Source: an uncultured Methanosarcinales archaeon
GTDB taxonomy: Archaea > Nanobdellota > Nanobdellia > Woesearchaeales > GW2011-AR4
Assembly: GCA_964438385.1 (NCBI GenBank)
Contig: CAYTKI010000011.1
Location: 48,739 to 112,738, forward strand
Reading direction: 5' to 3'
DNA length: 64,000 bases
How positions within the stretch are numbered: the first letter of the stretch is position 1; each line of letters begins with the position of its first letter. The notes under the pieces are model-generated. The model did not search any database and had not been told where the DNA came from. It saw only the letters and a program-made list of their open reading frames with translations. The position numbers were made by a program, and so were the translations under genes. This document shows positions 8,391 through 46,054 of the stretch, piece after piece.

Positions 8391-9806
8391 CTACACAATT
8401 CCTTTGATATCCTCTTTTTTTATTCCGCCTATCAAATAGAGTGCGCCGAAATAGATGAGGGCCGCAATTGGAAGCACGATAAAGAGATTCATGTCCTTTC
8501 CAAGGAAATAGATGAAGGCGCCCATAGCGGCTGACGCAAGGATCGGTTTGGCGCACATCCGCACGATGCCAACGCCATAGTTTTCCTTAAGCGCATAGTA
8601 ATAGAGCAGGCAGAAATTGACAAATGCGGTGATCACAGTCGCTGCCGATGCCCCGATGTAGCTGAACTTCGGGATAAGGAGTGCATTGAGTGCCACATTG
8701 ATGAAAAGGCATATTCCTGTTGTGTAGGCGAAGATGTGCGGCTTCTTGATGGCATTGAGAAACCACCCGACCATGTTGCCAAGGAAGAGAAAAACCGTAG
8801 TCCAGATGAGGATTTGGAGCACAATGATGGACTGCGTGAATCCTTCCTCGTACATAAAGAGAATTATCTTATCCGCAATCAGCGTCGCTCCAACCATCAG
8901 GGGAAAGCTCACAGCAGCCATCGCATACATCCCTTTCTCAAGAACCATCCGAAGAAGCTTCTTTGACATCTTGGCGTGCATCTCGGCCATGATGGGAAAG
9001 AGGACAAAGACAAGTATCCAGGGAATTTTTGATATCACATTGATGAGCTTATACGCCGCGTTGTAGAATCCGCTCGCCTCATAGCCCTTCATGAGGGTGA
9101 GCATGATGGTGTCCACCTGGAAATAGATGATGATAAACACGCTCGAGAGCCAAAACGTCCAGGATGTCTTGAGCATGGTCTTCCACATCGGCACATCAAT
9201 CTTAAGGGAGAAATGGACATCAAGCTTTCTGAGGAGATAAAGGGAGTAAAGCGTTGCAATGGCATTTGATATCACAAGCACAATCATGAAGGGCATAAGC
9301 CCATAGCCCGCAAGGAGCACAGAGATCCCAATCGCAAAGGCGATAGCCCGCTCGGCGATCCGAACAGCGGCCTCGTATTTCATCTGCTGGAATGAGGAGA
9401 AGGTGTTTCGCGCGACGTAGGAATAGTTCTGGAAGAAAAGCGAGATTGCGGCAAGGAAAATAATGAGGTTCACAGTCGGTCCTCGCGCCATGAAGAGAAG
9501 TGAGAGCATCGGGAGCCCCAAGGTGAGAAGGCAGAAGATCAGCTTGAGAGAGGCATACTGCCCAATATACTTATTCGCGTTCGCCCGATCCTTTGAGACG
9601 CTTGTGACATAAAAATAGGAGATCCCAAAATCATAGGCAAAGGTGAAGAATCCTGCGAAAGCAAACGCAAAGGAGTAGATGCCCAGCTGCTCCGCTCCGA
9701 GGTTTCTCGCAAGAAGGACTATCAAGAAATATGAAAGGATGTTGGAAATGACTTCTGCGAACGTCACAAAGCTGATGTTCTTCACGATATGCTTCTTAAG
9801 GGACAT
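8391..9806 (-). CDS. Polysaccharide flippase (Wzx/MOP superfamily)
   Basis: 471 aa, ~12-14 TM helices. Polysacc_synt-like N-terminus (ISNILSYFLIVLLARNLGAEQLGIYSFAFAFAG). Confidence 0.8.
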   Translation of the reverse strand: MSLKKHIVKNISFVTFAEVISNILSYFLIVLLARNLGAEQLGIYSFAFAFAGFFTFAYDFGISYFYVTSVSKDRANANKYIGQYASLKLIFCLLTLGLPMLSLLFMARGPTVNLIIFLAAISLFFQNYSYVARNTFSSFQQMKYEAAVRIAERAIAFAIGISVLLAGYGLMPFMIVLVISNAIATLYSLYLLRKLDVHFSLKIDVPMWKTMLKTSWTFWLSSVFIIIYFQVDTIMLTLMKGYEASGFYNAAYKLINVISKIPWILVFVLFPIMAEMHAKMSKKLLRMVLEKGMYAMAAVSFPLMVGATLIADKIILFMYEEGFTQSIIVLQILIWTTVFLFLGNMVGWFLNAIKKPHIFAYTTGICLFINVALNALLIPKFSYIGASAATVITAFVNFCLLYYYALKENYGVGIVRMCAKPILASAAMGAFIYFLGKDMNLFIVLPIAALIYFGALYLIGGIKKEDIKGIV

Positions 9807-9891
9807 GGACTCAAAAGGGAAATATCTTTATATATAGTTATTGCTTCCATAAGGAGTATTAAAATCAGGAAAAATATTTGGTTTTGGTAAA

Positions 9892-10869
9892 ATGGCAAAA
9901 ATTCTAGTGACTGGCGGTACGGGCTATGTGGGGGCGAACCTAGTCGTTGCGCTGGCAAAGGGGAGGCACCAAATAACCATCTTTGCAAGCCAGCCAATGC
10001 ATCCGTTCCTAAAGGATTTGAATATCAGGATCATCCAAGGGGATATCCGTGACCAGGGGGCAGTCGAGAGCGCGATAAAAGGCAAGGATTATGTCTATCA
10101 CCTTGCCGCGACCGCTATCAACGATCCGAAGAGAAGAAAGGATATCTTCGATATCAACGTACTCGGGACGGAGAGTGTGATGAGGGCCGCTCTCAAGCAC
10201 AAAGTGAAGAAAGTCGTCTACACAAGCTCCAGCGCAGCGCTTGGCTTTTCCAAGAATGAGGTTCCGCTCGATGAAAAAAATTTCCTTGATGAGAAGGATA
10301 ATCTCTATGGCATCTCAAAGAAAAATGGGGAGGACATCGTCCTGGAATATGTCAAGAAAGGCCTTAATGCGGTGATTGTCATGCCCTGCTATGTCGTTGG
10401 CGCAGGAGAGGTGGATCCGCAAAGATACGGGCTCTGGAAAAGCATCCATGCGGGAAGGATCCGCTTCACCTATCCGGGAGGCGGAGGAACCGTTGCCATC
10501 GAGGATCTGGTGGAAGGCATCATGCTTGCGATGAAGAAAGGAAAGGCAGCAGAGCGCTACAATCTCTGCAGCGGCTATATCCGGCTCTTTGATTTCTATA
10601 ATCTCATCGCAAAAGAGATGGGAAGTCCAGGGATACGGTGGAAAATACCGCGCATGGGCTATTATCCCGCCTATTTTCTTGCCGCTATTCTCGAAAAGCT
10701 TTTGAAGAGCCCTCCAATCACAAGGGAAGCGGTGCGATGGCATTTCAATTACAAGATGCCGGATTCCTCGAAAGCAAGGAAGGAGTTGGGGTGGGATCCC
10801 AATGTCCAGCTCAGGGAATCAGTCCAGCGCGCAATCGCGTACTACAAGAAAATCGGGGTGCTTCCATGA
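9892..10869 (+). CDS. NAD-dependent sugar epimerase/dehydratase (extended SDR)
   Basis: KILVTGGTGYVGANLV...YTSSSAA...YGISK (GxxGxxG, YxxxK). Confidence 0.8.
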   Translation: MAKILVTGGTGYVGANLVVALAKGRHQITIFASQPMHPFLKDLNIRIIQGDIRDQGAVESAIKGKDYVYHLAATAINDPKRRKDIFDINVLGTESVMRAALKHKVKKVVYTSSSAALGFSKNEVPLDEKNFLDEKDNLYGISKKNGEDIVLEYVKKGLNAVIVMPCYVVGAGEVDPQRYGLWKSIHAGRIRFTYPGGGGTVAIEDLVEGIMLAMKKGKAAERYNLCSGYIRLFDFYNLIAKEMGSPGIRWKIPRMGYYPAYFLAAILEKLLKSPPITREAVRWHFNYKMPDSSKARKELGWDPNVQLRESVQRAIAYYKKIGVLP

Positions 10870-11351
10870 AAATGGACCTGTTCCAGAAAATCATTAATAT
10901 GATAATCAATAGGATGAGGGTTTTTGTCAATAACGGGACGGCAAAGGTGCTCTCAAAGCCACACTTCATGACAAGAATTTTCGTGAACAGAGGGGCCCAT
11001 CTTGAGATAGGGATGAACACCAGCATCCAGCCCTACACAGTCGTTAATGTCGGAAGAAAAGTCAGCATCGGAAGCGATGTCATGGTCTCGCCGCATTGCT
11101 TCATCTCTGATTTCCAGCACGACTTCAAGCTCACGGGAAAGGAGAGGATGGAGAGCATGAAATACATGGATTGCGTGATAGACGATGGTGCATGGATCGG
11201 CTTTGGAAGCGTCATCATCGGCTCAAAGATCGGAAAGAATGCCGTAATTGGGGCGAATTCGACGCTCATCAACAAGGACATCAAAGACGATCATCTGTTT
11301 TTTGGTGACAGCAGGCTTGAGCAGACCCCAGAGCAGCTTAAGATTCGTTAG
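10866..11351 (+). CDS. Left-handed beta-helix (hexapeptide-repeat) acetyltransferase
   Basis: Hexapeptide repeats (VSIGSDVMV, AWIGFGSVIIGSKIGKNAVIGANSTL). The ATG overlaps the upstream stop (ATGA). Confidence 0.7.
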   Translation: MKMDLFQKIINMIINRMRVFVNNGTAKVLSKPHFMTRIFVNRGAHLEIGMNTSIQPYTVVNVGRKVSIGSDVMVSPHCFISDFQHDFKLTGKERMESMKYMDCVIDDGAWIGFGSVIIGSKIGKNAVIGANSTLINKDIKDDHLFFGDSRLEQTPEQLKIR

Positions 11352-12427
11352 AAGGAAATGACATCCGCAAGGAATTCTGCCGCATATTTGCCATCGGTAA
11401 TGCGGTGGTCAAATGCAATAGTCAGGTTTATTTTTGAGTCATGGGAAAGTTTTCCGCCATGTTGGGCGCAGGAATCATATTCTGAACCGATGCCAACGAT
11501 TGCAGATTGCCTTGCATTGATGAGGGGCTGGAATGAGAGAACGCCTGTTGCGGAGAGATCAGAGACGGTGAAGGTCCCTCCGTCCATGTCTTCCACTATA
11601 AGCGCGTTCTTTACTGTTTTCATGATGTGCTGCTTGTACTCTTCGGCAAATTGCGATAAGGGAATTCCTGATGCATTCTTTATGACCGGCACGAGCAGCT
11701 CATTTCCCACGTTTATGGCAATCCCAAGGTTGACCATCTTATACACCATAAATTTTCCCGCATGAAAATAGCTGTTAAGAAGCGGAAATTTCTTGAGGGA
11801 TAGTGCGATGCGAAATGAGAGGAATTCGCCTGAGCTAAGATTGATACGCAACTCGCTTTTTGCCTTCAAAATCGCCTCCTTGAGTTTGGAGGCAGAGCAT
11901 GTCATAGTAACTGAAGAGACAATATACTCCTTATTATGCGAGATTGCTTCTATCTCAGCAAGCTTCCGCGGAGAAATATCTTGCGCAATTGCATTGGTTT
12001 GCGTCAGTGACGCAATGTACTCTAGAATGTCAGATTCCTTGATAATCTTAGAAATTCCTTTGAACGCTGACAAAATATCTATGCCGTTATCTGCAGCAAG
12101 CTTTTTTGCAGATGGCGTTGCCTTGATATCGGTTGTAGCATCAGTTTTTGCTGTCTGCTGCGTGCGCTTGAAAGGCGCAATGGTTTCACCCGCAGTTCCG
12201 ATGAATCCAAGTTCATCAAGAACGTTATAGCGCTTCCCCAGCTCTGCTTCTAGGGCAAGTACCATTCCCTCACTCTCTGCCTCGATGCCATAGACAGCTT
12301 TCTCAGTCTCCACTTCGAAAAGAATGTCTCCCTTCTTCACAGTATCCCCCTTCCTAGCAAAGAGTTTGACAACAAGCGCCGTTGAGATATTTGCCCCCAT
12401 TTTGGGGATATAAATGAGTGTTCCCAT
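11348..12427 (-). CDS. Dihydrolipoamide acyltransferase (E2) of a 2-oxoacid dehydrogenase complex
   Basis: Lipoyl domain (ILFEVETEKAVYGIEAESEGMV), linker/PSBD region, and C-terminal 2-oxoacid_dh catalytic domain (AFDHRITDG). Confidence 0.85.
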   Translation of the reverse strand: MGTLIYIPKMGANISTALVVKLFARKGDTVKKGDILFEVETEKAVYGIEAESEGMVLALEAELGKRYNVLDELGFIGTAGETIAPFKRTQQTAKTDATTDIKATPSAKKLAADNGIDILSAFKGISKIIKESDILEYIASLTQTNAIAQDISPRKLAEIEAISHNKEYIVSSVTMTCSASKLKEAILKAKSELRINLSSGEFLSFRIALSLKKFPLLNSYFHAGKFMVYKMVNLGIAINVGNELLVPVIKNASGIPLSQFAEEYKQHIMKTVKNALIVEDMDGGTFTVSDLSATGVLSFQPLINARQSAIVGIGSEYDSCAQHGGKLSHDSKINLTIAFDHRITDGKYAAEFLADVISF

Positions 12428-12532
12428 GTCCTATGGTCCCCCAATTCCGTTTAAATAAGTTTGCTCGGGAAAGCCGCCATTCAGTTGCCAATCACTCTCA
12501 TTCTTGCCTGGCAACCAACACCCGCTCCCCAA

Positions 12533-13669
12533 TCATTTATTTTTTGAGGGCATATTGCTTTTCAAAATATTATCTCTGAGAATCTCTGCCACAAGCGTAT
12601 GGCCTTCCACGTTCCAATGACCATCAACAATGAAATAGAATGTGTTGTTGATGTTTTTCTGCCTGAACTCATCTAGGGGGTTGATGGCAGCAATGCCTTC
12701 TTTTTTGAGCCAGGGGACAAGCTCATCCTGCACTCTTGTCCTATTGATATCATTTAGCCCATTTTCCGAAGCGAATTTTTGCATCATCCCCTCATCAACC
12801 TGCTCTTTTGCCGGACTTACAAGAACCATAAAGTGGATATTTCTTTCATCAAGATATTTTTTCATGGCATCAAGCAGAAGCAAGGTCTTTTGGAATGCCT
12901 GCTCATACTCTTTGCTTTGCTCATTGGAATAGATTAGCGTATTGAAGTCCGCTTTTGGATCTTTTGTAGAAGGGTTGAGAAGGTGCATCCCAATGAGGAG
13001 GTTACTGATTTTCTTATTATCAATAACCGAGAAATAGAAAAGTGAATAGAGATGGGAATGCCAGCTCACCATATTCCTCACTTTCAGGGAGAAGCCCACA
13101 TCCTTTTTTGGAGTTTGGATAAGGGTGCTATTTTGTACCTCGAAGAGATTATACTTCACGTTCTCCTTAAGATCATTTGGAAAAAAGCTGAGAACGACCA
13201 TATCTGGGTGGAATGCCGCAACAGTATCCCTGAGAAGGAGGTATTCCTGCTCGGTACCATAGGCCGATATCCCAAAATTCATAACTTCGTATTTTCCTCT
13301 ACTATTATTTCCGTTGAGGAGCCGCTCAAGTACTTTGGCAAATGCCTCATTCTCCTCAACCCCAAACCCGAACACAAATGAGTCGCCGAGAACCGCGATT
13401 CTTTTCACGCCTTCTGGCTTCTGCACAGCATACTCCCTATCCCGAAGTCCTTGGGAGCTAATCCTCACATGCGTCTTGAATTCTAGGCGCTGAAGTACAG
13501 TTGAAATTCCCGGCTTGTGCTCAAATATCTTTTCAGAATCAAGCTGAGTGATATTGAGGTTTTGCGGGAAGAAGAGGCGGAGAAAGATTTCTGTAAGGAG
13601 GAATATAACCAGCAGCGCAGCAATTGCGACTGCAGCATTTTTCAAGAAACCCCCCATGCTCCAATTCAT
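12533..13669 (-). CDS. Membrane-anchored SGNH/GDSL hydrolase (paralog 1), inserted between E1beta and E2
   Basis: N-terminal TM helix, then block I RIAVLGDSFVFGFGV and C-terminal DGHWN (catalytic D/H). Confidence 0.7.
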   Translation of the reverse strand: MNWSMGGFLKNAAVAIAALLVIFLLTEIFLRLFFPQNLNITQLDSEKIFEHKPGISTVLQRLEFKTHVRISSQGLRDREYAVQKPEGVKRIAVLGDSFVFGFGVEENEAFAKVLERLLNGNNSRGKYEVMNFGISAYGTEQEYLLLRDTVAAFHPDMVVLSFFPNDLKENVKYNLFEVQNSTLIQTPKKDVGFSLKVRNMVSWHSHLYSLFYFSVIDNKKISNLLIGMHLLNPSTKDPKADFNTLIYSNEQSKEYEQAFQKTLLLLDAMKKYLDERNIHFMVLVSPAKEQVDEGMMQKFASENGLNDINRTRVQDELVPWLKKEGIAAINPLDEFRQKNINNTFYFIVDGHWNVEGHTLVAEILRDNILKSNMPSKNK

Positions 13670-13901
13670 TGCCTTTCCTTTCCTCCCTTAAAATTCCTTA
13701 CGCCACTCTGCTCTTGCCTAAAAATTGTTTATAAAAGTATCACGCGATGAGGCTGTTGCACTATCTGGATATGCCCAAAAGGAAGAAAACACCAATCCAG
13801 AAGTTTTGGTTCAGTAAAGGAATGCGCGTCCTGTTGCGCGCCACCATTGTGCGAGTGCGCAGTACAAGCGAGATAAAAAATAAACCTATACATAGAGTAA
13901 A

Positions 13902-14876
13902 TCATTCATCCAATAAGGCCAATACTGCCGCCTCTATCCTCTCTTTGTTTGGGATCAGTTTTTTCTCAAAGCTGGGATTGCAGGGAATGGGCGCATCAAA
14001 GGTGGCAATTCTCTTCATGGGAGCGTTAAGCGAATAAAAGCAGGATTCATTGATTCGTGCCATGATTTCTGCCGCAACTCCTGCCTCCTGAAAACCCTCA
14101 TCAACAATGACCACTTTTCCGATTTTCTTGACTGACGCGGAGATTGTCTCAATGTCAAGCGGCTTGATAGTGCGAAGATCAATCACTTCAACAGATACAC
14201 CATGTTTCTCAAGCTCCTGCGCGACTTCAAGGCAGTCATTGACTAGCTTGCTAAAGGAAATGAGTAGGGCATCGCTGCCAATTTTTGCCACCCTGGCTTT
14301 TCCTAACGGAATAAGTGCAGGGGCATTTGTAACATCTGCCTTTACCGAATACAACAATTTATGCTCGACAAATACAACGGGGCTGTTGTCCGCAATCGAC
14401 GCATGAAGCAATGCCTTTGCCTCAAGGGGATTTGAGGGAGCAACGATCTTGATGCCGGGAATATGCATGAGGGGGGCATACAATGATTTGGAATGCGTCG
14501 CCCCATACCCCCGCCCGGCCCCTGCTGCGACGCGGATGACTACGGGAACAGAAGTCTTTCCGTTTGAGAGATAGTGGAAGATGCTCGCATGATTGAATAG
14601 CTGATCATATGCCAATGTCACAAAATCCATGAACATGAGTTCCACAACGGGGCGAAGCCCCTGAATTGCGGCTCCAACGCCAAGCCCAACGATTGCCGCC
14701 TCCGACATCGGCGTGTCGATGACTCTTTTGCTTCCGTATTTGTCAAACAGCCCTTTCGTCATGCCAAAGCACCCGCCATAGACTGCAATGTCCTCCCCTG
14801 CAAGAAAGACATTCTCATCATTTGCAAGTGCCTCATCAAGGCCTTCCCGAATCATCTCCCCATAGGATTTCATCAT
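13902..14876 (-). CDS. 2-oxoacid (pyruvate/acetoin) dehydrogenase E1 beta subunit
   Basis: Transketolase-like pyrimidine-binding and C-terminal domains. Overlaps the E1 alpha gene by 4 nt. Confidence 0.9.
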   Translation of the reverse strand: MMKSYGEMIREGLDEALANDENVFLAGEDIAVYGGCFGMTKGLFDKYGSKRVIDTPMSEAAIVGLGVGAAIQGLRPVVELMFMDFVTLAYDQLFNHASIFHYLSNGKTSVPVVIRVAAGAGRGYGATHSKSLYAPLMHIPGIKIVAPSNPLEAKALLHASIADNSPVVFVEHKLLYSVKADVTNAPALIPLGKARVAKIGSDALLISFSKLVNDCLEVAQELEKHGVSVEVIDLRTIKPLDIETISASVKKIGKVVIVDEGFQEAGVAAEIMARINESCFYSLNAPMKRIATFDAPIPCNPSFEKKLIPNKERIEAAVLALLDE

Positions 14877-15814
14877 GGCGCGTACACATTCTCCAATAAC
14901 CTGCTCTCCTCCTCTTCAGGAAGCGCAATGACTTCGTCCGCTATGGTGTTTACAGTTGCAGTGCATTCTTCTTTGAATGCATTAATCGCTTCCCTCGTGG
15001 TTTTTCCGCTGTCAATAAGTTCATTTTCCATGGCCGGAACAGCATCCTTTCCGAACCAGAACTGCTCTTCTTTCTTGTCGCGGTACAGGTTCTGATCGTT
15101 TTTCGAGTGGCCATGGTGCCTATACGTCTGCACCTCGATGAATCGGGGGGAGGGGGTTTTCCGCATGTCACTGATGAATGTTTTTGCTGCCAAATCGAGC
15201 TTGTTGTAGTTATTTTCAGGTATGGTCTCGCAAATGATGCCAAATCCTTCTACCCTCTTCTTGATAGTTGCAGAAAGAACGCGATTGACATGGGTTGACA
15301 TTGCGTAAAAATTGTTCTCGCACACGAAGAGTACCGGAACGTCAAGGACTTTTGCCATGTTGAGTGCCTCAAGCGCAAATCCCTCATTCATGGTCCCGTC
15401 CCCAAGGTATGCAACAACAATGGAGTCCTTGCCTTTGTACTTGTCCGCAAAGGCCATGCCGTTTGCAACCGGCATCATGCCGCCGGTGATACCATTGGCA
15501 AAGAAATTGTGATCCTTTGAGCTCACGTGCTGCGAGCCTCCTTTGCCCCTGTTATACCCGATTTTCTTGCCCAGAAGCTCTGCGAGAAATAGGCGAACAT
15601 CAAGCCCTTTGGCAAGAGCATGCCCATGGCCGCGGTGCGTGCTCGTGACCGCATCCTCATCAGTGAGGTATTGGGAGATGATGACGGGAATAAACTCCTG
15701 GCCTATGCAAAAGTGCGCAGTTCCATGCACCAACCCTTTTTTGAAGAGCTCATCAAGCTTTTTCTCAACAGTGCGTATGAGAAAAGTCTTCTTATAAACT
15801 TCAAAATCCATGTG
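14873..15814 (-). CDS. 2-oxoacid dehydrogenase E1 alpha subunit (TPP-dependent)
   Basis: GDG TPP-binding motif (YLGDGTMNEG), HGHS phosphorylation-loop-like region (YRHHGHS). Start placed at MDFEVYKK; the 27-aa N-terminal extension in the track is probably not translated. Confidence 0.85.
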   Translation of the reverse strand, partial: HMDFEVYKKTFLIRTVEKKLDELFKKGLVHGTAHFCIGQEFIPVIISQYLTDEDAVTSTHRGHGHALAKGLDVRLFLAELLGKKIGYNRGKGGSQHVSSKDHNFFANGITGGMMPVANGMAFADKYKGKDSIVVAYLGDGTMNEGFALEALNMAKVLDVPVLFVCENNFYAMSTHVNRVLSATIKKRVEGFGIICETIPENNYNKLDLAAKTFISDMRKTPSPRFIEVQTYRHHGHSKNDQNLYRDKKEEQFWFGKDAVPAMENELIDSGKTTREAINAFKEECTATVNTIADEVIALPEEEESRLLENVYAP

Positions 15815-15880
15815 GTCTGGAGAGCCAGAAACGTTTAAATAGGTTTCTGAGGAAGCACTCTGCTTTAAGAGGGAAAATGG

Positions 15881-16099
15881 ATGGATGAAGAGCAACTCAA
15901 GGCGTTCACTGCGGAGTACTGGAAGCTTAAGCCATCAGGGGTACACGAAGGGCTTTCTTTCGATAATGTGCAGATCGCAAATTTTAGCTCCATTAAGTTC
16001 TATCGTTTCATCGCGGAAGTGGAGAAGAGATTCAAGGTCAAGGTGCACAATCTCAGTCAGATAGCCACTCTAAAGGATCTTCTCGCTAACCTGAAATAA
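15881..16099 (+). CDS. Small acyl/aminoacyl carrier protein-like protein (copy 1)
   Basis: 72 aa. The core NFSSIKFYRFIAEVEKRFKVKV aligns residue-by-residue with copy 2 at 47751..47999 (DSFNNLMLISKFEEEYNVRF) and fits a phosphopantetheine-attachment Ser followed by helix II/III. TTTAAATA sits 40 nt upstream. Confidence 0.5.
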   Translation: MDEEQLKAFTAEYWKLKPSGVHEGLSFDNVQIANFSSIKFYRFIAEVEKRFKVKVHNLSQIATLKDLLANLK

Positions 16100-16103
16100 G
16101 GCC

Positions 16104-17432
16104 TTACTTCTTTCCTTTCTGGGCAATTTCGACAAGCGCGGCATCTACCGCTTGCAAAAATGCCTCTGAAAGAGTCGGGTGGGCATGTACGGTCTTATGG
16201 ATATCTTCCAATGTGAGGTTGTTTCTGATGGCAAGCGTTGGCTCTGCTACAAGTTCCGATGCCCAAGGGCCAATGGCGCAAAAACCCTTGAGATAGTTGC
16301 CATCGTGAAATATTTTAACAAACCCATCTATGTCCCCAAGGGCGCGGGCCTTGCCGTTTGCGGCGAATCGGAAGATGCTTGAGGGAAGGGTTGAATTTCG
16401 CACGCCAACAGAGGAGATTTCAGGTAAGGTGAAAATAGCGGCAGGAATAATTGTTCCGTCAAATTCCTTTCTTTTGCCCATGAGAGTTGAGGCAGCGGCT
16501 TCTGCCTGGGCAGAAGCAAAATGCGCAAGCATGGTCAGCCCGGTGACATCACCGACCGCATAGATATTTTCCACGCTGGTCTGCATCATGCTATTGACGT
16601 GAATTCCCTTCGAATAGTTTACACCAAGTTTGTCTAATTCTTTCTTGTCAAAAGATGGCTGAACGCCGATTGCGACAAGAATCCTATCTCCCTTCACACT
16701 CTTTGCTCCATTTTCATGCAGAAATGAGATTTCATCCTCCTTAATGCCCGTTACTTTTGCTTCGGTGAAAACATTTATGCCCTCTCTTCTCATCAGGCGC
16801 AGGATTTCCTCTGAGATATCGGCATCTTCTGTCGGCAGCAGCCGTTGTGCCATCTCAATGATTATCACCTTAGAGCCAAAGGCGCAGAAGAGGGAGGCGA
16901 ATTCACAGCCGATGTATCCTCCACCGATAATGACAAGTGTTGCGGGCAATTCAGTGACTTCAAGTAGCGTTGTGCTGTTAAGGACAAAAGGATTATCTTC
17001 TGTGTGGGGAAGCGCAATTGGCTTCGCTCCGGTAGCGATGACGATATTCTTTGTCTTGAGCTCTTTTCCATTGACAACAACAGTATGCCTGTCTTTGATT
17101 TTCCCTTCTCCGGAAATGACTTCCACATTGTGCTCATTCATCACCATGCCAATACCGCGCGAAAGCAATCCGGAAACCTCATCCTTGCGCTGCATAAGGG
17201 CGGCAAAATCAATCTGCACTTCGCCAGAAATGCCTGTCCCTTGTGCTTTCTTGAGCTTTTGGAGTAGCGTTGCTGTGGCATGCAGGGTCTTTGTCGGGAT
17301 GCATCCGTAATTGGTGCATGCGCCGCCGAGCTTGTCTTTTTCGATAAGTGCAGCTTTTCCACCAAGATCCGCTACAAGGCGCGCACATTCGTATCCACCT
17401 GGCCCTGAGCCGATGATTATTGCGTCATACAT
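16104..17432 (-). CDS. lpd: Dihydrolipoyl dehydrogenase (E3)
   Basis: YDAIIIGSGPGGY...GGACTNYGCIPTK redox-active disulfide motif. 442 aa. Confidence 0.9.
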   Translation of the reverse strand: MYDAIIIGSGPGGYECARLVADLGGKAALIEKDKLGGACTNYGCIPTKTLHATATLLQKLKKAQGTGISGEVQIDFAALMQRKDEVSGLLSRGIGMVMNEHNVEVISGEGKIKDRHTVVVNGKELKTKNIVIATGAKPIALPHTEDNPFVLNSTTLLEVTELPATLVIIGGGYIGCEFASLFCAFGSKVIIIEMAQRLLPTEDADISEEILRLMRREGINVFTEAKVTGIKEDEISFLHENGAKSVKGDRILVAIGVQPSFDKKELDKLGVNYSKGIHVNSMMQTSVENIYAVGDVTGLTMLAHFASAQAEAAASTLMGKRKEFDGTIIPAAIFTLPEISSVGVRNSTLPSSIFRFAANGKARALGDIDGFVKIFHDGNYLKGFCAIGPWASELVAEPTLAIRNNLTLEDIHKTVHAHPTLSEAFLQAVDAALVEIAQKGKK

Positions 17433-17567
17433 GGAAATCAGATAAAAGGTGGAAGTGGTATTTTAAAGATTTTGTGGTGGAAATGTCCGCATAAGGGAAA
17501 AGTGATGGAGGGTAATTGATGGCAAATAATCGTTATATTTATCTATGGAAAGGGATTTTGGCTTGGA

Positions 17568-18596
17568 ATGAAAGAAAAGCAAAAGAACCTCATTGCACTT
17601 GTGGTATCCATTGCTCTCATCCTCTTCCTTGCCGAGATGATGCTGCGTTTTGTGGTGATAGGCCCCCCTCTAAAGGAAACTCCAAACTCCATGCACATTC
17701 CGCTTAACACTTCAGAACGGCTCTGGGGGCTTAAGCCAAACGAGGAAGGCATCCAGGCAGGCGCCTATTACAGGATCAACTCCCAAGGATTCAGGGATTA
17801 TGAATACTCACAAAAGAAGCCGGCAGGTGTTTATAGGATTGCCGTGATTGGTGACTCAGTCACATTTGGCAAGGGGGTTCTTTTGGAGGACACTTATACA
17901 AAGATCCTTGAGAAAGAGCTTCCTTCGCTTTGCAATAAGAAGATAGAGGTGCTCAATTTTGGAGTTTATGGCTACAACACAGAGCAGGAAGTTGCCGTTA
18001 TAAAGGAGCATGTATTGAAGTACCATCCGGACATGATAATCATGCTCTACACCCTTAACGATCCTGATGTTGAGTTCCAATTCATCCTTTCAAGAGTTGA
18101 GGAAAAAAAGACAGTGAGTGGGAGCGTCAAGAAATTCCTAAACGATCACATCTATCTCTATAAGATTGCCGCCCGCATTTACTACACACAGAGCCAAATC
18201 AAGAAAAACAAGAATTTAAGCATTCTAACTTTTTATCCGAAACTCCATAATAAATCATATCCAGGATGGAAGATGGTCGAGCAGAAATTTTCAGAAATGA
18301 GTGATTTAAGTAGATATGAAAGAATTCCGATTGTTCTTTTCATTCAGCCGGAGCTCTATAAGTTAAGCGGAGAGTATCCGTTCGCAGCCATCCATGCGCA
18401 GGTGATCGCAGAGGCCAAGGCAAGGGGAATTCCCGCCTATGATCTCTTCCCCTATTTCAAGGGAGGGAATCCGCGGGAGCTGAGGGTCAGTAATTTCGAG
18501 GATCGGCATCCAAACAAGAGGGGCCATAAGATAATCGCAGAAGGAATTATGGATATCCTCGCCAAAAATAATTTTCTTAAGGGATGCAATGCATAG
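17568..18596 (+). CDS. Membrane-anchored SGNH/GDSL hydrolase (paralog 2)
   Basis: TM anchor plus RIAVIGDSVTFGKGV. Same architecture as 12533..13669 and 19694..20851. Confidence 0.7.
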   Translation: MKEKQKNLIALVVSIALILFLAEMMLRFVVIGPPLKETPNSMHIPLNTSERLWGLKPNEEGIQAGAYYRINSQGFRDYEYSQKKPAGVYRIAVIGDSVTFGKGVLLEDTYTKILEKELPSLCNKKIEVLNFGVYGYNTEQEVAVIKEHVLKYHPDMIIMLYTLNDPDVEFQFILSRVEEKKTVSGSVKKFLNDHIYLYKIAARIYYTQSQIKKNKNLSILTFYPKLHNKSYPGWKMVEQKFSEMSDLSRYERIPIVLFIQPELYKLSGEYPFAAIHAQVIAEAKARGIPAYDLFPYFKGGNPRELRVSNFEDRHPNKRGHKIIAEGIMDILAKNNFLKGCNA

Positions 18597-19677
18597 GGAC
18601 CGAGACAAAAGCATGGAGAAGAATGGCAGCATGTGGAGAGGCAAAAAGGTTGAACTTGGGAAAAGTCCAAGAATGCTCCTCATCGCCCTCAATGGGATAG
18701 GAAATCTGCTGCTCGCAACCCCATTTCTTACAAATGGTAAGAAGATGTATCCGCGATCCGCTGTTTCTGTGCTCGCGCTTGGGGATGCCGTAAGTGTGCT
18801 TAAAGAAAGCCCTTATGTTGATGAAGTCATCATCTATCCGGAAAAGTCCTCATTTCTTGTGCGTATTGGATTTCTCTTATCGCTGAGGAAAAGGAAATTC
18901 GATGTCAGCTTCTATCCCTATCCCAATGTCAATGCCATGAGCGCGATCATCGCATTCATCATAGGGGCCAAAGTGAGGGTAAATTTCGAGTATAGGATGT
19001 TAGGCAGGTGGGCAGGCCTTTTCGACACTATCAGCATTCCTGTTGATTTGTCAAAGCACGATATCGGGAAAAACCTTGATCTTCTTGAGCCGTTCCATGC
19101 AAAAGTACTCTCGAGGGAGTTATTTATTCCAATCACAAAAGAAGACAAGAACGTTGTTGATGGGCTCTTGAAAGGAAAAATCAGGAAAGGCAATATCTTA
19201 ATCGGCATGCACGTTGGCTCAAAGGAGAGCATGCGCATCTGGCCAACAGGGAATTTCGCGAAACTCGCACAGCTCCTTTCTGTCCATAAAAACATCAAAA
19301 TCCTTCTTGTGGGAACTTCAATCGAAGAGGGGCTCATCAAGGGGTTGCAGGAATTTAATGGCAGAAATATCATCAGCCTCCTCAGCAAAGCAACGATTCC
19401 AGAGACTACGGAAGCCATCAGAAGGTGCGCGCTCTTTGTAACTACTGATTCCGGCCCTATGCACATGGCGGTTGCCGCGAAGACAAAAGTGATTGCAGTC
19501 TATCTCGGCCCAAACATCAGAAGGACTGCCCCATATGGAAAGAAGCATGTCGTATTCCTCACCAACAAGGCGACGATGGCAGAAGATGGGAACAAAAAAC
19601 ACCTCTATGTGGATAAGGTGACTCCTGAAATGCTCTATGAGCGCATCAAAAAAGAGCTGGGAAAAAGGTTAAAATAA
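18589..19677 (+). CDS. GT9-family glycosyltransferase (ADP-heptose:LPS heptosyltransferase-like)
   Basis: MLLIALNGIGNLLLATPFL, GMHVGSKESMRIWP, TTDSGPMHMAVA: GT9 (RfaF/RfaC/WaaQ-like) blocks. The true start is probably an internal Met. Confidence 0.7.
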   Translation: MHRDRDKSMEKNGSMWRGKKVELGKSPRMLLIALNGIGNLLLATPFLTNGKKMYPRSAVSVLALGDAVSVLKESPYVDEVIIYPEKSSFLVRIGFLLSLRKRKFDVSFYPYPNVNAMSAIIAFIIGAKVRVNFEYRMLGRWAGLFDTISIPVDLSKHDIGKNLDLLEPFHAKVLSRELFIPITKEDKNVVDGLLKGKIRKGNILIGMHVGSKESMRIWPTGNFAKLAQLLSVHKNIKILLVGTSIEEGLIKGLQEFNGRNIISLLSKATIPETTEAIRRCALFVTTDSGPMHMAVAAKTKVIAVYLGPNIRRTAPYGKKHVVFLTNKATMAEDGNKKHLYVDKVTPEMLYERIKKELGKRLK

Positions 19678-19693: not shown

Positions 19694-20851
19694 CTACGTT
19701 CTTTGTGCCCTTTCAAGCTCTTCTTTGGCCTGCACGAAAAGCTGCTGCGCGACAAGGGCATGCCCTTCTGCGTTCAGGTGACCGTCAATGGGCAGAAACA
19801 GCGGAGCGGAAGTATCTTTTTCCCTGAAAGCGGTGTAGACATCCACAAAAGTGATGTTGTTTTTTTTTGCGTAGTCGTATAGTTCGTCATTGGGCCGCGT
19901 CCTGCTCACTTTTCCTTCTCCAATCCGCTTCTTGTACATGGTCCATTCCGCATCGCGTATCTGGAAGCGCACCGGCAGGGCAAGGAGGATAAGCGAAATG
20001 TTGTGTTCAAGTGAGAGGGTGTGGATGGCAGAAAGCACTTTCTTGTTTTTCTCCCAATCCTTGGCGATCCCCAGGTTGTATTCAAGATCAAAGATCCGAT
20101 TTGAGGAGGACACATCAACCCATTGCGAGACGCGGGTCTTGGCAAAGACAAAAAGATGGGAATGGGTGAGTAGGCCCTCATAGAGCGAATTCACTATCCT
20201 GTTCTTGAGCAGGGGTAGTGTGCGCTTAGCGCTGCGCAGCCGGTGCTCTTCATCAACAGAATAGTAGGGTGAGGTAATTTTTTGCAGAAGTCCTTGCTCA
20301 TCACTCTCCCAAACATTGAGGGAAACATCAGTGACATCGTTATAGACAAAAAAACCGATAATGATGACATCTGGCTTGAATTTTTCCAAGGCATAATTCT
20401 TGAGATAGAGATAATAGCTGTCAAGTGAGTACCCATCGCTAAATCCGGTGTTGAACACCTGGTACGCGATTCCCTTGGAGTTGAGTATCCTCTCAAGTGA
20501 TTTAGCATAAGTTTCATTCATCTCAACCCCAAAGCCGTAGGTCATGGAATCACCCATCACAAGGACACGGGTCAAGTTGGAATGGATTGGGCGTTCATAG
20601 TCTCGAATCCCATAGGAATTGATCTCAACAGACACGTTGAAATCCCCATACACCCCGATATGGGTGTCTTTTGCCCCAGGCATGAGTGTCCAGGGAAGAT
20701 ACTCGCTCTTCTGGTAGATCTGAGGGGAGCTGTGCCTCGCAGTAGAGTAGGTTACCTGCGGCAAAAAGAGCCGAAGCGCGATCTCAAGTAGGAGAATCGA
20801 AACGAGGAGCGCTGCTGTGAGCGCAAGGATATTTTTGTGGAAGTTTCTCAT
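19694..20851 (-). CDS. Membrane-anchored SGNH/GDSL hydrolase (paralog 3)
   Basis: TM anchor, RVLVMGDSMTYGFGV, DGHLNAEGH. Confidence 0.7.
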   Translation of the reverse strand: MRNFHKNILALTAALLVSILLLEIALRLFLPQVTYSTARHSSPQIYQKSEYLPWTLMPGAKDTHIGVYGDFNVSVEINSYGIRDYERPIHSNLTRVLVMGDSMTYGFGVEMNETYAKSLERILNSKGIAYQVFNTGFSDGYSLDSYYLYLKNYALEKFKPDVIIIGFFVYNDVTDVSLNVWESDEQGLLQKITSPYYSVDEEHRLRSAKRTLPLLKNRIVNSLYEGLLTHSHLFVFAKTRVSQWVDVSSSNRIFDLEYNLGIAKDWEKNKKVLSAIHTLSLEHNISLILLALPVRFQIRDAEWTMYKKRIGEGKVSRTRPNDELYDYAKKNNITFVDVYTAFREKDTSAPLFLPIDGHLNAEGHALVAQQLFVQAKEELERAQRT

Positions 20852-21003: not shown

Positions 21004-21855
21004 GTGAATGCGATGAACCAAAATCTTGAGCAATTGAAGGATGTGTTATCTGCAGAAGTTGTCAGGATCTACGCGGAAGCCTTCGGAGAGCCCAAGCTGA
21101 AAAAAGCCCTTGCGTTCCTGAAAACCTATAACACGGAGTTCCTCTTGGGCCAAAGCAGGCTGAACCGAAGCAAGAATTATGAGAAAGGCAATGAGAAGGA
21201 TTTGCATGCGCTCTATTACACCGATGCGGAGTTTATGCAGTTCTACAATGACTCCCTCTTCCTCTCCTACGCCCATTGGAAGAACCATAATGCCATGCTA
21301 AGGTACTTCATCAAGATAGTCAGGAAAATCAAGCCGGAAACTGTCCTTGACGTTCCCTGCGGATCAGGTTTCTACACGCGCTACCTGAGAAAATCCTCCC
21401 GCTCATTCCCGCACATAACCTGCGTCGATGCGAGCGAGCATTCGCTGCAGTTCGCAAAAAAAATAAACAGGGATTCGCAAAATGTTTTCTATCTCAGGGA
21501 GGATTTCAGGAATATCGGAGGAAAATACGATTTCATCATCTGTGGAGAGCTCCTCGAGCACCTTGAAAAGCCAAAAGAATTGCTCGCATTCCTCCGCAAG
21601 CGCGTCAAGGAAGATGGAAAGGTCTTTTTGACCACGGCTCTTTTTTGTTATGCCCATGATCATATCTATATGTTCAGGAGCGCAAGGGATGTGAGGAGAT
21701 TGCTGAAAAAATACTTCTTCATAGAGAATGAATTGGTCCTGCCTGTCTTTGACAGCCAGAAGCTGGGGCATAATGTCCCCACAAACTATGCCTGCCTTCT
21801 GAGGCCGATAAAGACGGGCGGCAGGCAGAATAATGGGGAAGATGCTTCCTTCTAG
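21004..21855 (+). CDS. Class I SAM-dependent methyltransferase
   Basis: VLDVPCGSGFYTRYL (motif I), DFIICGELLEHL (motif II/III). GTG start in the track. Confidence 0.7.
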   Translation: MNAMNQNLEQLKDVLSAEVVRIYAEAFGEPKLKKALAFLKTYNTEFLLGQSRLNRSKNYEKGNEKDLHALYYTDAEFMQFYNDSLFLSYAHWKNHNAMLRYFIKIVRKIKPETVLDVPCGSGFYTRYLRKSSRSFPHITCVDASEHSLQFAKKINRDSQNVFYLREDFRNIGGKYDFIICGELLEHLEKPKELLAFLRKRVKEDGKVFLTTALFCYAHDHIYMFRSARDVRRLLKKYFFIENELVLPVFDSQKLGHNVPTNYACLLRPIKTGGRQNNGEDASF

Positions 21856-22829
21856 CCGGATCCTGATGCATTCCTCCGGATAATCGCGATATCTGCCGCG
21901 AGCTGCCTGGAAAATTGGGCGCTGCCCTCATCGTTGAGGTGCACGCTGTCTGCGAATAAGAAATGGTTTGTATAGTTCCAGCGTTGATAGTCCAGAAGAT
22001 AGGTATTGGAGACATTGCCGTAATAATCACCGAGAATCCCGTAAAATCCCTTTGTATCGGGAATATACCCTGAAGCGATTGAGAGATAGGTGTCTGTAAC
22101 GGGAAATTTCACCAGGATGACGGTGATGTTTCTCTTTTGCGCAAGGGCAAGCGTTTTTTGGAAGTAGTGGATCATTCCTGGGTGCAGGATGGACGCGTTC
22201 CTGAAGTGGTATGCTGCGCGCTGCGAGGCGATGCCATCCTTATCTGCGGCCATGCTAAAGCGGTCATGCATCGGCAGGTGGCCAAGCGCCATTTCCCGCG
22301 AACCTCCCTCAAAGAGAGAAGCCACGAGCTTTTCTCCCCCTCCGATTATTGGGAACGCCGATTTGATGTACTCCTTGAAGGGGTATACCTCATCAAAATG
22401 ATACCACAACTCTTCATAATCAATGAACTTGTGCCAATACCACACATCCTGTACTCTCGAAGCCCTATAGGAAGAAAAGGAGTGGAGATTAAGCGGCAGG
22501 ACGATCACCTCAGGCTCAAAGCCGGAGTCGTTAAGAAGAAAGCGGAGCTTATAGTATGTCTGCATGTAGGTTTCCCCCGCCAAGCCGTAGTTAAAGGATC
22601 CTGGGATAAACGCCGGATTCACGTCTGCCTGCGTTGATGAATCCCCGAGGAACAGAATCTTCACATCAGGCTTGCTCTTGGAGAACTGCTCATCTTGGAT
22701 CCAAAGCCCGGTTCTCTTCAGCACGTATTCTGCATACAGGGCATTAAGAAGGAGAAAAAGAACAAGAAAGAGGAGCGCAAAGGCGCCTGCATATCCCAAT
22801 GATTTGTACATTTCCTTTTCCATGGTCAA
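21852..22829 (-). CDS. SGNH-like O-acyltransferase partner protein (DltD/AlgJ-like), paralog 4
   Basis: TM anchor, ILFLGDSS block I, adjacent to and co-oriented with the MBOAT gene (4-nt overlap). Confidence 0.6.
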   Translation of the reverse strand: MTMEKEMYKSLGYAGAFALLFLVLFLLLNALYAEYVLKRTGLWIQDEQFSKSKPDVKILFLGDSSTQADVNPAFIPGSFNYGLAGETYMQTYYKLRFLLNDSGFEPEVIVLPLNLHSFSSYRASRVQDVWYWHKFIDYEELWYHFDEVYPFKEYIKSAFPIIGGGEKLVASLFEGGSREMALGHLPMHDRFSMAADKDGIASQRAAYHFRNASILHPGMIHYFQKTLALAQKRNITVILVKFPVTDTYLSIASGYIPDTKGFYGILGDYYGNVSNTYLLDYQRWNYTNHFLFADSVHLNDEGSAQFSRQLAADIAIIRRNASGSG

Positions 22830-24277
22830 AACTGGAAATAAATGAAGGGTGTTTTTTCAAATACGCCAAAGAGCAAAATGAAGAGTATGGCAAGGGCAGA
22901 GACGCTCCATTTCACCACAAGAGATCCTTTGGAAAGAGAATCCTCATGGAGCATGTCTTTCTCCTCAAGCCATTCCCAGAACAGGAGCAGTGTGATGGTG
23001 CCGAAGGAGATGGCAAGGCCATACCAGCTCAGGCCGATAAATGTTCCCCCGACAGAGAGGCTCCAGCCGCTGAGAAGATGAGTGAATATGTAGTAGGCAT
23101 CTCCCAGGGAGTTCGAGCGGAAGAGGATGTTGGAAAGGGAGAACAAAAGGAAGGTGGCAATCACTTTCAGAAGCTGTGGCATGGTATCCCACTGCTTTCT
23201 TGCAAAATAGTAGAGGAAAATCAGCAATGCCATGCACCATCCATAGATGATAAAATTCCAGCTCGCGCCGTGCCACAGGCCAAGAAGCGGCCAGCCGATG
23301 AACAGGCAGAGTGTAAAGGCGAGTGTGTGGAGTATTTTCGCATCCTGCACGAATTCCCTAGATGTTTCCTTAAGCAAAAGATAGAGCGGGATGAAAACAT
23401 AATCCTGGAACCATTTAGTGAGGGAAATATGCCAGCGGTTCCAAAGCTCAGCGATGGACTGCGCAAAAAATGGTCTTCGGAAATTCTGAACTAGGCTATA
23501 GCCCATAATCCCTGCAGTCCCACGTGCGATGTCAGAATACCCGGAGAAATCGCAGTAGATCTGAATCGTGAAGGCAAAAGCCGCCAGAAGCAGCTCCATG
23601 CCATTGTAAGACGAGGGAGAACTGAAGACAGTGACGGTGAGCAGGGAGAGGCGATCCGCGATAACAACTTTCTTGAAAAAACCAAGGGCGATGAGCTGTA
23701 GGCTGCCAAAAATGCGGGAGTTGTCCCATTTCTTTTCCTCATAGAATTGCGGAAGTAGATGTCCAGCGCGCTCGATTGGCCCCGCGACAAGCTGTGGGAA
23801 GAACGCATGGTAGACTGCGTAAATTCCAAAGTGTCTTTCCGCAGTGATTTTTTTACGGTAGACATCGATATTGTAGCTCACGGCCTGGAAAGTGTAAAAT
23901 GAGATGCCGACAGGCAGGATGAGATTGAGGGCAAGGGGAGAGAACTGGATGCCGATGTGGGAGAAGAGTTCCCTGAGCGATTCGCCAAAGAAATTCGCGT
24001 ACTTGAAGGCAAAGAGCATGCCGAAGTTGCCAAATAGCCCAAACAGAAGCAATGTTTTGCGGGTGCGTGGATTTTCCGACTTCTCCATGAAGAGCGAGCA
24101 GAAGTAGCCAATGAGTGTGGAGAGGAAAAGAAGGATGCCATACTCAAGCTTCACGCTCATGTAGAAGTAATAGCTCGCGATGAGGAGCAGCATCCAGCGG
24201 AAGCGGTGGGGAATAGTGAAATGCAGTAGCACCACAATGGTAAAGAACACTAAAAATTCAAGGGAGTTGAAGAGCAT
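22826..24277 (-). CDS. MBOAT-family membrane O-acyltransferase (AlgI/DltB-like)
   Basis: 483 aa polytopic. FYTFQAVSYNIDVYRKK, QLVAGPIER, and a conserved His region, typical of AlgI/DltB. Confidence 0.85.
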   Translation of the reverse strand: MLFNSLEFLVFFTIVVLLHFTIPHRFRWMLLLIASYYFYMSVKLEYGILLFLSTLIGYFCSLFMEKSENPRTRKTLLLFGLFGNFGMLFAFKYANFFGESLRELFSHIGIQFSPLALNLILPVGISFYTFQAVSYNIDVYRKKITAERHFGIYAVYHAFFPQLVAGPIERAGHLLPQFYEEKKWDNSRIFGSLQLIALGFFKKVVIADRLSLLTVTVFSSPSSYNGMELLLAAFAFTIQIYCDFSGYSDIARGTAGIMGYSLVQNFRRPFFAQSIAELWNRWHISLTKWFQDYVFIPLYLLLKETSREFVQDAKILHTLAFTLCLFIGWPLLGLWHGASWNFIIYGWCMALLIFLYYFARKQWDTMPQLLKVIATFLLFSLSNILFRSNSLGDAYYIFTHLLSGWSLSVGGTFIGLSWYGLAISFGTITLLLFWEWLEEKDMLHEDSLSKGSLVVKWSVSALAILFILLFGVFEKTPFIYFQF

Positions 24278-41098: not shown

Positions 41099-41178
41099 GC
41101 TCCAATGAAAGAAAAGCTATTTAAATAATTTCCCATGAGAGAGTGATAAGGCCGCTAGATTAGTGGCTCAGAGGAAAT

Positions 41179-46041: not shown

Positions 46042-46054
46042 GTGGGGAAGTCTC

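Follow-up and report, generated by a model that had tools for sequence, protein, structure and literature searches.

The 64,000 nt of archaeal DNA analysed here (the window; contig CAYTKI010000011.1, positions 48,739-112,738 of the forward strand, assembly GCA_964438385.1, labelled as an uncultured Methanosarcinales archaeon and placed by GTDB in the Woesearchaeales, GW2011-AR4) come from a DPANN archaeon and encode a 2-oxoacid dehydrogenase complex (E1alpha, E1beta, E2 and E3) within an island of glycan genes. Between the E3 and E1alpha genes lies a plus-strand gene for a 72-aa carrier protein that was absent from the initial annotation. This overlooked gene and the conserved module to which it belongs constitute the substantive finding, while the gene order of the complex and the SGNH hydrolase gene inserted into it are lineage-specific details. 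We favour, with moderate confidence, the reading that E1, E2 and E3 charge the carrier with a short acyl group, and thus form a dedicated lipoate-dependent acyl-loading machine and not a housekeeping pyruvate dehydrogenase (PDH).

The carrier was characterized with a profile built from an alignment of six orthologues, in all of which Ser37 is invariant. A search of this profile against all PDB sequences returned 56 matches, 55 of which were acyl carrier proteins (ACPs; best E 9e-7), and the invariant serine aligned to the phosphopantetheine-bearing serine of the DSL motif of ACPs. The PP-binding family PF00550 was matched directly by two of the six orthologues (best E 2.7e-7), the window carrier alone remaining below threshold (15 bits against 20.8). 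Judged by these profiles, the 72-aa protein is a carrier protein of the ACP family. The assignment is based on sequence profiles because the single-sequence AlphaFold model is weak (pLDDT 65) and a Foldseek search of this low-confidence model against the PDB gave no significant match; the model has helices at residues 3-16, 19-23, 37-51 and 58-70, the third of which begins with Ser37. Similar to the window protein, the carrier of one relative (locus L001, 4381-4611) is basic with a pI of 9.0, while other members of the family and typical ACPs are acidic (pI 4.4-5.1).

To place the carrier gene in a wider context, the window E2 was searched against 5.8 billion proteins and the contigs behind its relatives were read (L-numbers denote these contigs or loci, which were compared with the window). 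Thirteen close relatives of 350-397 aa were found at 40-54% identity, after which the scores drop from 279 to 171 bits and ordinary PDH E2s follow at 28% identity. Among species-representative genomes, the relatives are from two Woesearchaeota, one Pacearchaeota and one short contig labelled Methanosarcinales. The E1beta of the window is 61-72% identical to those of the archaeal relatives. In the recurrent layout of the archaeal module, E1alpha-E1beta and the carrier gene point away from each other, and E1beta is usually followed by E3, LplA, often LipA (lipoyl synthase), and then E2. After E2, on the opposite strand, comes the gene for a 111-aa ACPS-type phosphopantetheinyl transferase (PPTase) or for an acyltransferase of the hexapeptide-repeat (LbH) or GNAT type, and in most archaeal relatives it is ACPS that directly follows E2. 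The carrier gene is adjacent and divergent to E1alpha in the window and in L001, L003, L005, L006, L007, L009, L011, L090, L101 and L102, and in L010 it lies in the same module at a non-adjacent position. In L011 and L102, genes for a DUF1574-like protein (X, described below), an MBOAT acyltransferase and the carrier occupy one strand, with E1alpha-E1beta-E3-LplA-LipA-E2 divergent from them and ACPS after E2. The closest relative, on a contig of 7.5 kb, has DUF1574, E1alpha, E1beta, E2, ACPS and MBOAT genes and little else. All archaeal relatives with readable flanks are located among glycosyltransferases, flippases and sugar-modifying genes. The Pacearchaeota locus L011 additionally has a 76-aa open reading frame (ORF; 9271-9501), without a Pfam match, and a 500-nt gap (9501-10001) between LipA and E2.

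The module extends into Bacteria. A genome scan revealed ~70 bacterial loci, which were mapped by tblastn and a hidden Markov model (HMM) of the carrier. A large group has a fused E1alpha-beta (642-690 aa), a short E2 and then the carrier, often fused to ACPS, and is found in Elusimicrobia, Planctomycetes, Verrucomicrobia, relatives of Thermoanaerobaculia, and others. A second group, from Steroidobacteraceae, Opitutaceae, SAR86 and Pirellulales, has E1 and E2 of this kind with the carrier and an MBOAT flanking them, an arrangement that was confirmed by Pfam in L078. The carrier, ACPS and MBOAT partners are all missing from loci whose gene order, E2-E3-E1alpha-E1beta, looks canonical. A neighbour-joining tree of the E2 catalytic domain (60 bootstraps) set the carrier-associated E2s of both domains apart from the remaining E2s in 60/60 replicates, and the archaeal clade was recovered in 52/60. 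Carrier, ACPS or MBOAT genes are near 38 of the 45 loci of this clade, compared with none of 38 other E2 loci. Both the separate E2 clade and the glycan context of the relatives support the initial proposal that the complex is linked to the modification of glycans and not to central metabolism. Other conceivable loaders of the carrier in E1-containing loci were rejected as general candidates, as they are almost never present: AMP-ligases occur in only 2-3 of the 45 clade loci, and the window is the sole E1-containing locus with an FkbH homologue.

Fused E1alpha-beta proteins were observed in L012, L019, L021, L052 and L078, among others, and an example of the carrier-ACPS fusion is found in L021 (11136-11864, 242 aa). 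The SAR86 operon of L078 (6499-14157) encodes an AMP-binding enzyme resembling fatty-acyl-CoA ligases, E1alpha-beta, E2, an ACP, an MBOAT and a 393-aa protein, and thus has two possible loaders for one carrier.

The components of the complex in the window appear catalytically complete (Table 1). The minus-strand order given in the initial annotation (E3, E1alpha, E1beta, a membrane-anchored SGNH protein, E2) is correct, and the ORFs exactly fill 11348-17432. The catalytic motifs of all components are intact: the redox CxxxxC and HxxxxE motifs of E3, the GDG...NN motif for thiamine diphosphate (ThDP) and the YRHHGHS loop of E1alpha, and the lipoyl-lysine in ETEKA and the DHRITDG site of E2. The lipoyl-Lys43 and DHR..DG are invariant throughout the E2 clade. 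The E1alpha frame (14873-15895) is open up to a TTG at 15895, and its start is most likely the ATG at 15811, as in the gene call on the identical contig and in all relatives; the end of E1alpha and the beginning of E1beta share 4 nt. None of these proteins is covered by a dedicated NCBIfam model. E1alpha is below the cutoffs of the PDH and related equivalogs (TIGR03182, 271 against 394 bits; TIGR03181, 165 against 411 bits), and E2 is below every NCBIfam E2 cutoff, with TIGR01349 as the best equivalog (142 against 445 bits). Among solved structures, E1alpha and E2 are closest to mitochondrial-type PDH subunits, and the best solved relative of E1alpha is human PDH E1alpha (166 bits, against 86 bits for branched-chain 2-oxoacid dehydrogenase, BCKDH); weak matches of E1alpha to Transketolase_N and DXP_synthase_N were also seen. 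An acetoin-type complex, which had been put forward as an option, is not indicated, since the match of the acetoin E2 model NF011457 (48 bits, cutoff 307) is confined to the lipoyl domain of E2 (residues 4-118). Overall, the complex resembles canonical PDH and AcoABCL in having four catalytic components with textbook motifs, and differs from canonical PDH in its short E2 (359 aa) from a separate clade and in its partners, namely the carrier, ACPS, LbH and MBOAT. With the in-operon E3s of relatives the window E3 shares just 29-33% identity, compared with 56-72% for E1alpha and E1beta, and this difference suggests that E3 has undergone non-orthologous replacement in the window lineage. No LplA or LipA gene was found within the 64-kb window.

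Table 1. Coordinates of the carrier gene, the dehydrogenase complex and associated features. Positions refer to the window unless a locus is named; TM, transmembrane.
Feature	Position	Strand	Description	Basis
LbH acyltransferase	10866-11351	+	161 aa, hexapeptide repeat	PF00132 (Hexapep), E 4e-10
E2	11348-12427	-	359 aa; lipoyl domain, short weak E3-binding domain, 2-oxoacid_dh catalytic domain	PF00198, 144 bits; PF00364
TATA-box-like TATTTAAA	12450-12457	-	A-rich BRE-like flank; 22 nt upstream of E2 ATG	motif only
SGNH1	12533-13669	-	N-terminal TM anchor, GDSL/AlgX-like domain; GDS at 95, DGH at 349	PF13472 (Lipase_GDSL_2); PF16822 (ALGX)
E1beta	13902-14876	-	324 aa	PF02779 and PF02780; PRK09212 (NF006667, subfamily model), 332 bits against cutoff 321
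E1alpha	14873-15811	-	312 aa from ATG 15811	PF00676, 193 bits
TATA-box-like TATTTAAA	15834-15841	-	GAAAC flank; 23 nt upstream of E1alpha ATG	motif only
Carrier protein (CP)	15881-16099	+	72 aa, ACP family; Ser37 at start of helix 2	family profile
E3, dihydrolipoyl dehydrogenase	16104-17432	-	442 aa	TIGR01350, 454 bits against cutoff 409
SGNH2	17568-18596	+	TM-anchored SGNH1 paralogue; GDS and DRH motifs	PF13472; 33% identity to SGNH1
SGNH3	19694-20851	-	TM-anchored SGNH1 paralogue	PF13472 and ALGX; 30% identity to SGNH1 over full length
X	21852-22829	-	TM-anchored, DUF1574-like, SGNH clan; GDS at 62, DSVH at 294	PF07611, E 1e-3
MBOAT	22826-24277	-	483 aa	PF03062; sub-threshold DltB model TIGR04091, 138 against 375 bits
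Second carrier module	44589-47999	+	MaoC dehydratase, SDR, ACPS, FkbH-like loader (567 aa), second ACP	Pfam; carrier HMM
ACPS-type PPTase	45706-46041	+	111 aa, sole PPTase in window	PF01648, E 9e-16; TIGR00556, 60 bits against cutoff 45
Stand-alone catalytic-domain proteins	L095 7668-8285; L091 5020-5631; L097 4727-5335		no lipoyl domain; translationally coupled to ACPS	

The gene content suggests a pathway in which each transfer step, the acyl group and the final acceptor are conjectural. ACPS would convert the carrier to its holo form; the window ACPS is 40% identical to the one adjoining E2 in L001. E1 would decarboxylate a small 2-oxoacid and reductively acylate the lipoyl arm of E2, the catalytic domain of E2 would transfer the acyl moiety onto the carrier's phosphopantetheine thiol, instead of or in preference to free CoA, and E3 would re-oxidise the lipoyl arm. 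An acyl-S-carrier is proposed as the product rather than acyl-CoA because the conserved partners of the complex are an ACP-family protein and a PPTase, and the earlier suggestion of a local acetyl- or acyl-CoA source is for this reason not supported. Pyruvate is the favoured substrate by the similarity of E1, and an acetyl group is likewise favoured by the closeness of E1alpha to pyruvate E1alpha and by L003, where a pyruvate kinase gene adjoins the carrier gene. The PIG-L de-N-acetylase gene beside an LbH-like gene in L001 and the glycolyl-transferring Qnc precedent discussed below are points against acetyl.

Two routes from the charged carrier to a glycan can be envisaged, one cytoplasmic and one across the membrane. 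The cytoplasmic route would lead from acyl-S-carrier to the LbH protein, whose gene is convergent with E2, the stop codons overlapping, and which is our candidate cytoplasmic user of the acyl-carrier in glycan acylation. Five archaeal and four bacterial loci have a member of this LbH family beside the module. LpxA and LpxD are LbH acyltransferases that use acyl-ACP, and the window system would resemble them in the pairing of an LbH protein with an acyl-carrier donor acting on a sugar, the LbH gene directly following the carrier gene in several loci. The window LbH is, however, short and WbbJ/NeuD-like, with no similarity to LpxA/LpxD models above noise.

The membrane route would run from acyl-S-carrier via the catalytic histidine of the MBOAT to the tyrosine of its C-terminal FIYFQF motif, then to the serine of X and/or the three SGNH paralogues, and finally to a glycan hydroxyl. 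The conserved histidines of the MBOAT are present (WNRWHISL and GLWHGA), and its sequence ends in ...TPFIYFQF. Every MBOAT adjoining these E1/E2 modules (in the window, L011 and eight bacterial loci) ends in F(I/L)YF(Q/N)F. Such a C-terminal hexapeptide supplies the tyrosine that relays the acyl group from the MBOAT to the SGNH protein in PatA/PatB as well as, through DltX, in the Dlt system (PMC12148441). The gene for X overlaps the MBOAT stop. X is 27% identical to a protein of L011 (1662-2642, E 9e-36), and this orthologue passes the PF07611 cutoff (32.4 against 29.1 bits). DUF1574 is an uncharacterised family that has been placed in the SGNH clan (PMC9487903), and we consider X, on the basis of its sequence and gene position, a putative equivalent of PatB or DltD, that is, the SGNH-clan partner of the MBOAT. 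SGNH1 is proposed as a candidate extracytoplasmic O-acyltransferase. In some bacterial operons an SGNH-like gene directly precedes the carrier gene.

The carrier family is not confined to dehydrogenase modules. A metagenome search with the family gave 14 loci, two with the full E1/E2 module. In most of the loci lacking E1, an LbH gene directly follows the carrier gene, and in L091-L100 an FkbH-ACP-MaoC-SDR operon is divergent from the carrier-LbH pair, in the position otherwise taken by E1/E2. As the FkbH module takes the E1/E2 position in these loci, the slot divergent from the carrier gene fits an acyl-supply position. Downstream of the carrier-LbH pair and on the same strand, L095 and L097 encode ACPS together with a stand-alone 2-oxoacid_dh catalytic domain of 200 aa; the corresponding pair of ACPS and catalytic domain in L091 and L092 is located ~3.4 kb upstream of carrier-LbH, also on the same strand. 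The window has an FkbH module of its own, with a second ACP of 82 aa (47751-47999) carrying a WDS motif. This module resembles supply modules of the glyceryl- or lactyl-ACP type and adjoins a formyltransferase gene (43480-44571).

Several observations weigh against loading of the carrier by E2. The transfer from E2 to the carrier is deduced from gene neighbourhood and one precedent, and the Fisher p of 7e-17 for the contrast of 38/45 with 0/38 loci counts related loci and is uncorrected for shared ancestry. The window carrier is basic, unlike typical ACPs, and the window ACPS is situated 30 kb from E1/E2, inside the FkbH operon with the second ACP, so that the PPTase link is indirect. The stand-alone catalytic domains had been considered as support for E2-carrier chemistry and were downgraded, as their catalytic histidine is replaced (DAR, DSR or DAM for DHR); they may be pseudo-enzymes or scaffolds. 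E1beta and E3 reach the curated PDH/Lpd cutoffs, like ordinary components. LbH resembles acetyl-CoA-dependent sugar acetyltransferases (sub-threshold NCBIfam matches of the WbbJ/NeuD/WcaF type), and acyl-CoA, including acetyl-CoA, is the reported donor for PatA-type MBOATs in which the Tyr motif is fused (PMC12148441). Finally, ten of the 14 metagenome loci are without E1; the carrier family is thus not exclusive to E1 modules, and the carrier could be charged in some other way.

The last four of these points equally favour a local acyl-CoA factory, in which an ordinary CoA-dependent 2-oxoacid dehydrogenase feeds LbH and MBOAT while the carrier is charged otherwise (e.g., by FkbH) or serves another step. 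The closeness of E1alpha to PDH E1alpha and the canonical DHR..DG site retained by E2 are also in its favour. We nevertheless regard this explanation as rather unlikely, as it accounts neither for the tracking of the E2 clade by carrier and ACPS genes (38/45 against 0/38) nor for the bacterial carrier-ACPS fusion encoded directly after E2 with no other loader near, and since E2 and E1alpha are far below the curated PDH cutoffs.

The proposed loading of a carrier by E1/E2 has a precedent in actinomycete antibiotic biosynthesis. As described in PMC6335953 after Peng et al. (2012, PNAS), QncN/QncL/QncM of quinocarcin and NapB/NapD of naphthyridinomycin biosynthesis are E1/E2-type systems making glycolicacyl-S-ACP, and the same parts, SclQ1-4 and SclP, bring a C2 glycolyl unit from a ketose phosphate to an ACP in scleric acid biosynthesis. 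Qnc and its homologues are the sole characterised case known in which E1/E2 proteins charge an ACP. The likeness to the window family, drawn from the published description of the parts, comprises a split E1alpha-like and E1beta-like pair, a lipoyl/acyltransferase E2-like protein, a small ACP and, directly after E2 in most relatives though 30 kb away in the window, a PPTase (PMC6335953), and it would extend to the logic proposed for the window, where the acceptor of the acyl group on the lipoyl arm is a carrier protein and not CoA. The Qnc, Nap and Scl systems feed nonribosomal peptide synthetases (NRPSs), occur in actinomycetes and draw on ketose phosphates, whereas the window family is set in a glycan context, is distributed over DPANN and many bacterial phyla, and has no NRPS. 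It also differs from these systems in having E3 and lipoylation genes in the cluster and an E1 most like pyruvate E1.

A strict version of this parallel would have a transketolase-like E1 act on a ketose phosphate and the glycan become glycolylated via a glycolyl-carrier. The parts and sizes do match SclQ1-4 and SclP (ACP 76 aa, E1alpha-like 305 aa, E1beta-like 338 aa, E2-like 386 aa, and a PPTase; PMC6335953), and the weak Transketolase_N and DXP_synthase_N matches of E1alpha, the transaldolase and sugar-isomerase genes near the module in L003, and the L001 de-N-acetylase, which hints at a new group other than acetyl, are in keeping with it. E1alpha, however, is closest to the pyruvate-specific E1alpha and has a PDH-like YRHHGHS loop, pyruvate kinase adjoins the carrier gene in the very same L003, and domain searches found no NRPS among the window genes. 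We therefore consider glycolyl loading of this kind distinctly improbable.

Returning to the favoured pathway, in which the complex acylates the carrier, its membrane branch can be compared with known MBOAT-SGNH systems. In the Dlt system (DltA, DltC, DltB, DltX, DltD), as proposed for the window, a carrier thioester passes its acyl group through the MBOAT to the tyrosine of the hexapeptide, then to an SGNH-clan protein and to an envelope polymer (PMC12148441), and the only NCBIfam match of the window MBOAT is to DltB, below threshold. The window system is unlike Dlt in that the proposed loader is a ThDP- and lipoate-dependent E1/E2 and not the adenylating DltA, the Tyr motif forms part of the MBOAT itself, like that of PatA, where Dlt has a separate DltX microprotein, the partner is DUF1574/AlgX-like and not DltD, and the acyl group would not be D-alanine. 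In its MBOAT with a fused FxYxxF motif, followed by an SGNH-clan partner, and in its AlgX-like paralogues, the window resembles PatA/PatB, AlgI/AlgJ/AlgX and WssH/WssI. According to a 2025 paper, Dlt alone among the MBOAT-SGNH pathways has a carrier protein (PMC12148441), and the PatA/PatB, Alg and Wss systems are reported to operate without a carrier and with acyl-CoA (PMC12148441); here, in contrast, the carrier, ACPS and E1/E2 co-occur with the MBOAT, and in L011 and L102 the carrier gene is co-directional with MBOAT and X.

The SGNH gene between E1beta and E2, given prominence in the initial annotation, is not conserved. None of the ~13 archaeal relatives has an SGNH gene at this place, including the two closest (E2 identity 54% and 52%), in which E1beta and E2 are spaced by 29-38 nt. 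SGNH1 is thus a lineage-specific insertion, private to the window lineage. The supposed canonical rule that nothing is interposed between the complex genes does not hold for this family either, as relatives carry E3-LplA-(LipA) between E1beta and E2. The insertion is in line with a further explanation, in which a housekeeping PDH came to lie in the island by chance rearrangement, with the SGNH protein and the small ORF as unrelated passengers, and published DPANN reconstructions do read these genes as converting pyruvate to acetyl-CoA (PMC5994134, PMC8421398). The initial annotation had suggested that relatives in a central-metabolism setting, free of SGNH and glycan neighbours, would point to such a rearrangement; the SGNH gene is indeed missing from them, but the glycan neighbours are present wherever flanks are readable. 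The ~13 archaeal loci, with E2s only 40-54% identical to that of the window, retain both the glycan context and the carrier gene, canonical E2s lie outside the E2 clade, and dedicated LplA, LipA and E3 genes lie inside the glycan cluster. Taken together, this leaves a displaced housekeeping PDH very improbable.

The five genes of the complex region do not form one operon. The plus-strand carrier gene lies between E3 and E1alpha, with E3 convergent with it, which places E3 outside the E1alpha transcript. The E1alpha TATA-like box is inside a 69-nt divergent region common to E1alpha and the carrier gene, similar TATA/BRE-like elements precede E3, SGNH1 and other genes (at least nine window genes altogether), and an oligo-T run follows E1beta; these elements and the oligo-T run suggest four or five transcription units in place of one operon. 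The element in front of E2 is probably its own promoter, giving a leaderless mRNA. The motif recurs as TTTAAATA or TATTTAAA with a (G/C)AAAC flank ~27-35 nt upstream of starts, for example also at ~20954 and 41118-41127, and would fit archaeal BRE/TATA promoters and leaderless mRNAs. A scan of 11000-18000 for bacterial promoters and terminators gave counts no higher than in shuffled sequences.

The placement of the complex in a glycan island, recognised from the start, was confirmed by domain searches, which identified GT2, GT4/GT1 and GT9 glycosyltransferases, RmlA/B/D-type genes, epimerases, methyltransferases, two flippase-type Polysacc_synt genes, LbH and MBOAT. The same searches detected no AMP-binding gene among the window genes. 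The GT9 gene (heptosyltransferase family; 18589-19677) of this archaeal window lies between two TM-anchored SGNH paralogues. Adjoining the island on the plus strand (56672-62804) is an acyl-CoA or lipid-type cluster, in which a FabA-like dehydratase, two archaeal-type thiolases, DUF362, a FabG-like SDR and a family III CoA-transferase are encoded consecutively. The named best hits of a thiolase from the far end of the window, at 65-86% identity, are all proteins of Woesearchaeota, Nanoarchaeia or Nanoarchaeota, and the assignment of the window to a DPANN archaeon based on them is consistent with both the promoter motifs and the relatives of E2. The large ORFs at 2368-3789, 30682-33264, 35114-36757, 48070-50151 and 52593-53702 are without a significant Pfam match; that at 48070-50151 encodes a 693-aa multi-TM protein, and that at 52593-53702 has a faint polysaccharide-deacetylase match. 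Scans of the window for tRNAs and Rfam families found nothing.

Each kind of component described here is known, and it is the combination of a 2-oxoacid dehydrogenase with its own carrier, PPTase and lipoylation genes in a glycan cluster with LbH or MBOAT-SGNH proteins that is not described in the literature searched. No E1/E2 system with an ACP and an MBOAT or a glycan system was found there, which, given the partial coverage of that literature, is weak evidence of novelty. More tentatively than for the window itself, we suggest that the family may represent a widespread, undescribed form of acyl supply, in which a ThDP- and lipoate-dependent module charges a dedicated carrier that feeds LbH and PatA-like MBOAT-SGNH acyltransferases in DPANN, Elusimicrobia, Planctomycetes, Verrucomicrobia, Gammaproteobacteria and others. 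If so, the logic of E1/E2 transfer to an ACP, known only from a few actinomycete antibiotic pathways, would be that of a broad envelope module found in two domains of life. It would also constitute a third MBOAT-SGNH design, with a carrier charged by an oxoacid dehydrogenase, beside the carrier-dependent Dlt system and the acyl-CoA-dependent others (PMC12148441), and would raise the question of which acyl groups this design installs. Models of DPANN and Woesearchaeota metabolism take the gene set as aerobic-type oxidation of pyruvate to acetyl-CoA (PMC5994134, PMC8421398). If the proposed function is correct, the 'pyruvate dehydrogenase' of these DPANN archaea, together with their whole lipoylation machinery, would serve decoration of the cell surface, the published reconstructions would need revision, and both the energy and carbon inferences drawn for DPANN and the presumed reason for which they keep lipoate enzymes would change.

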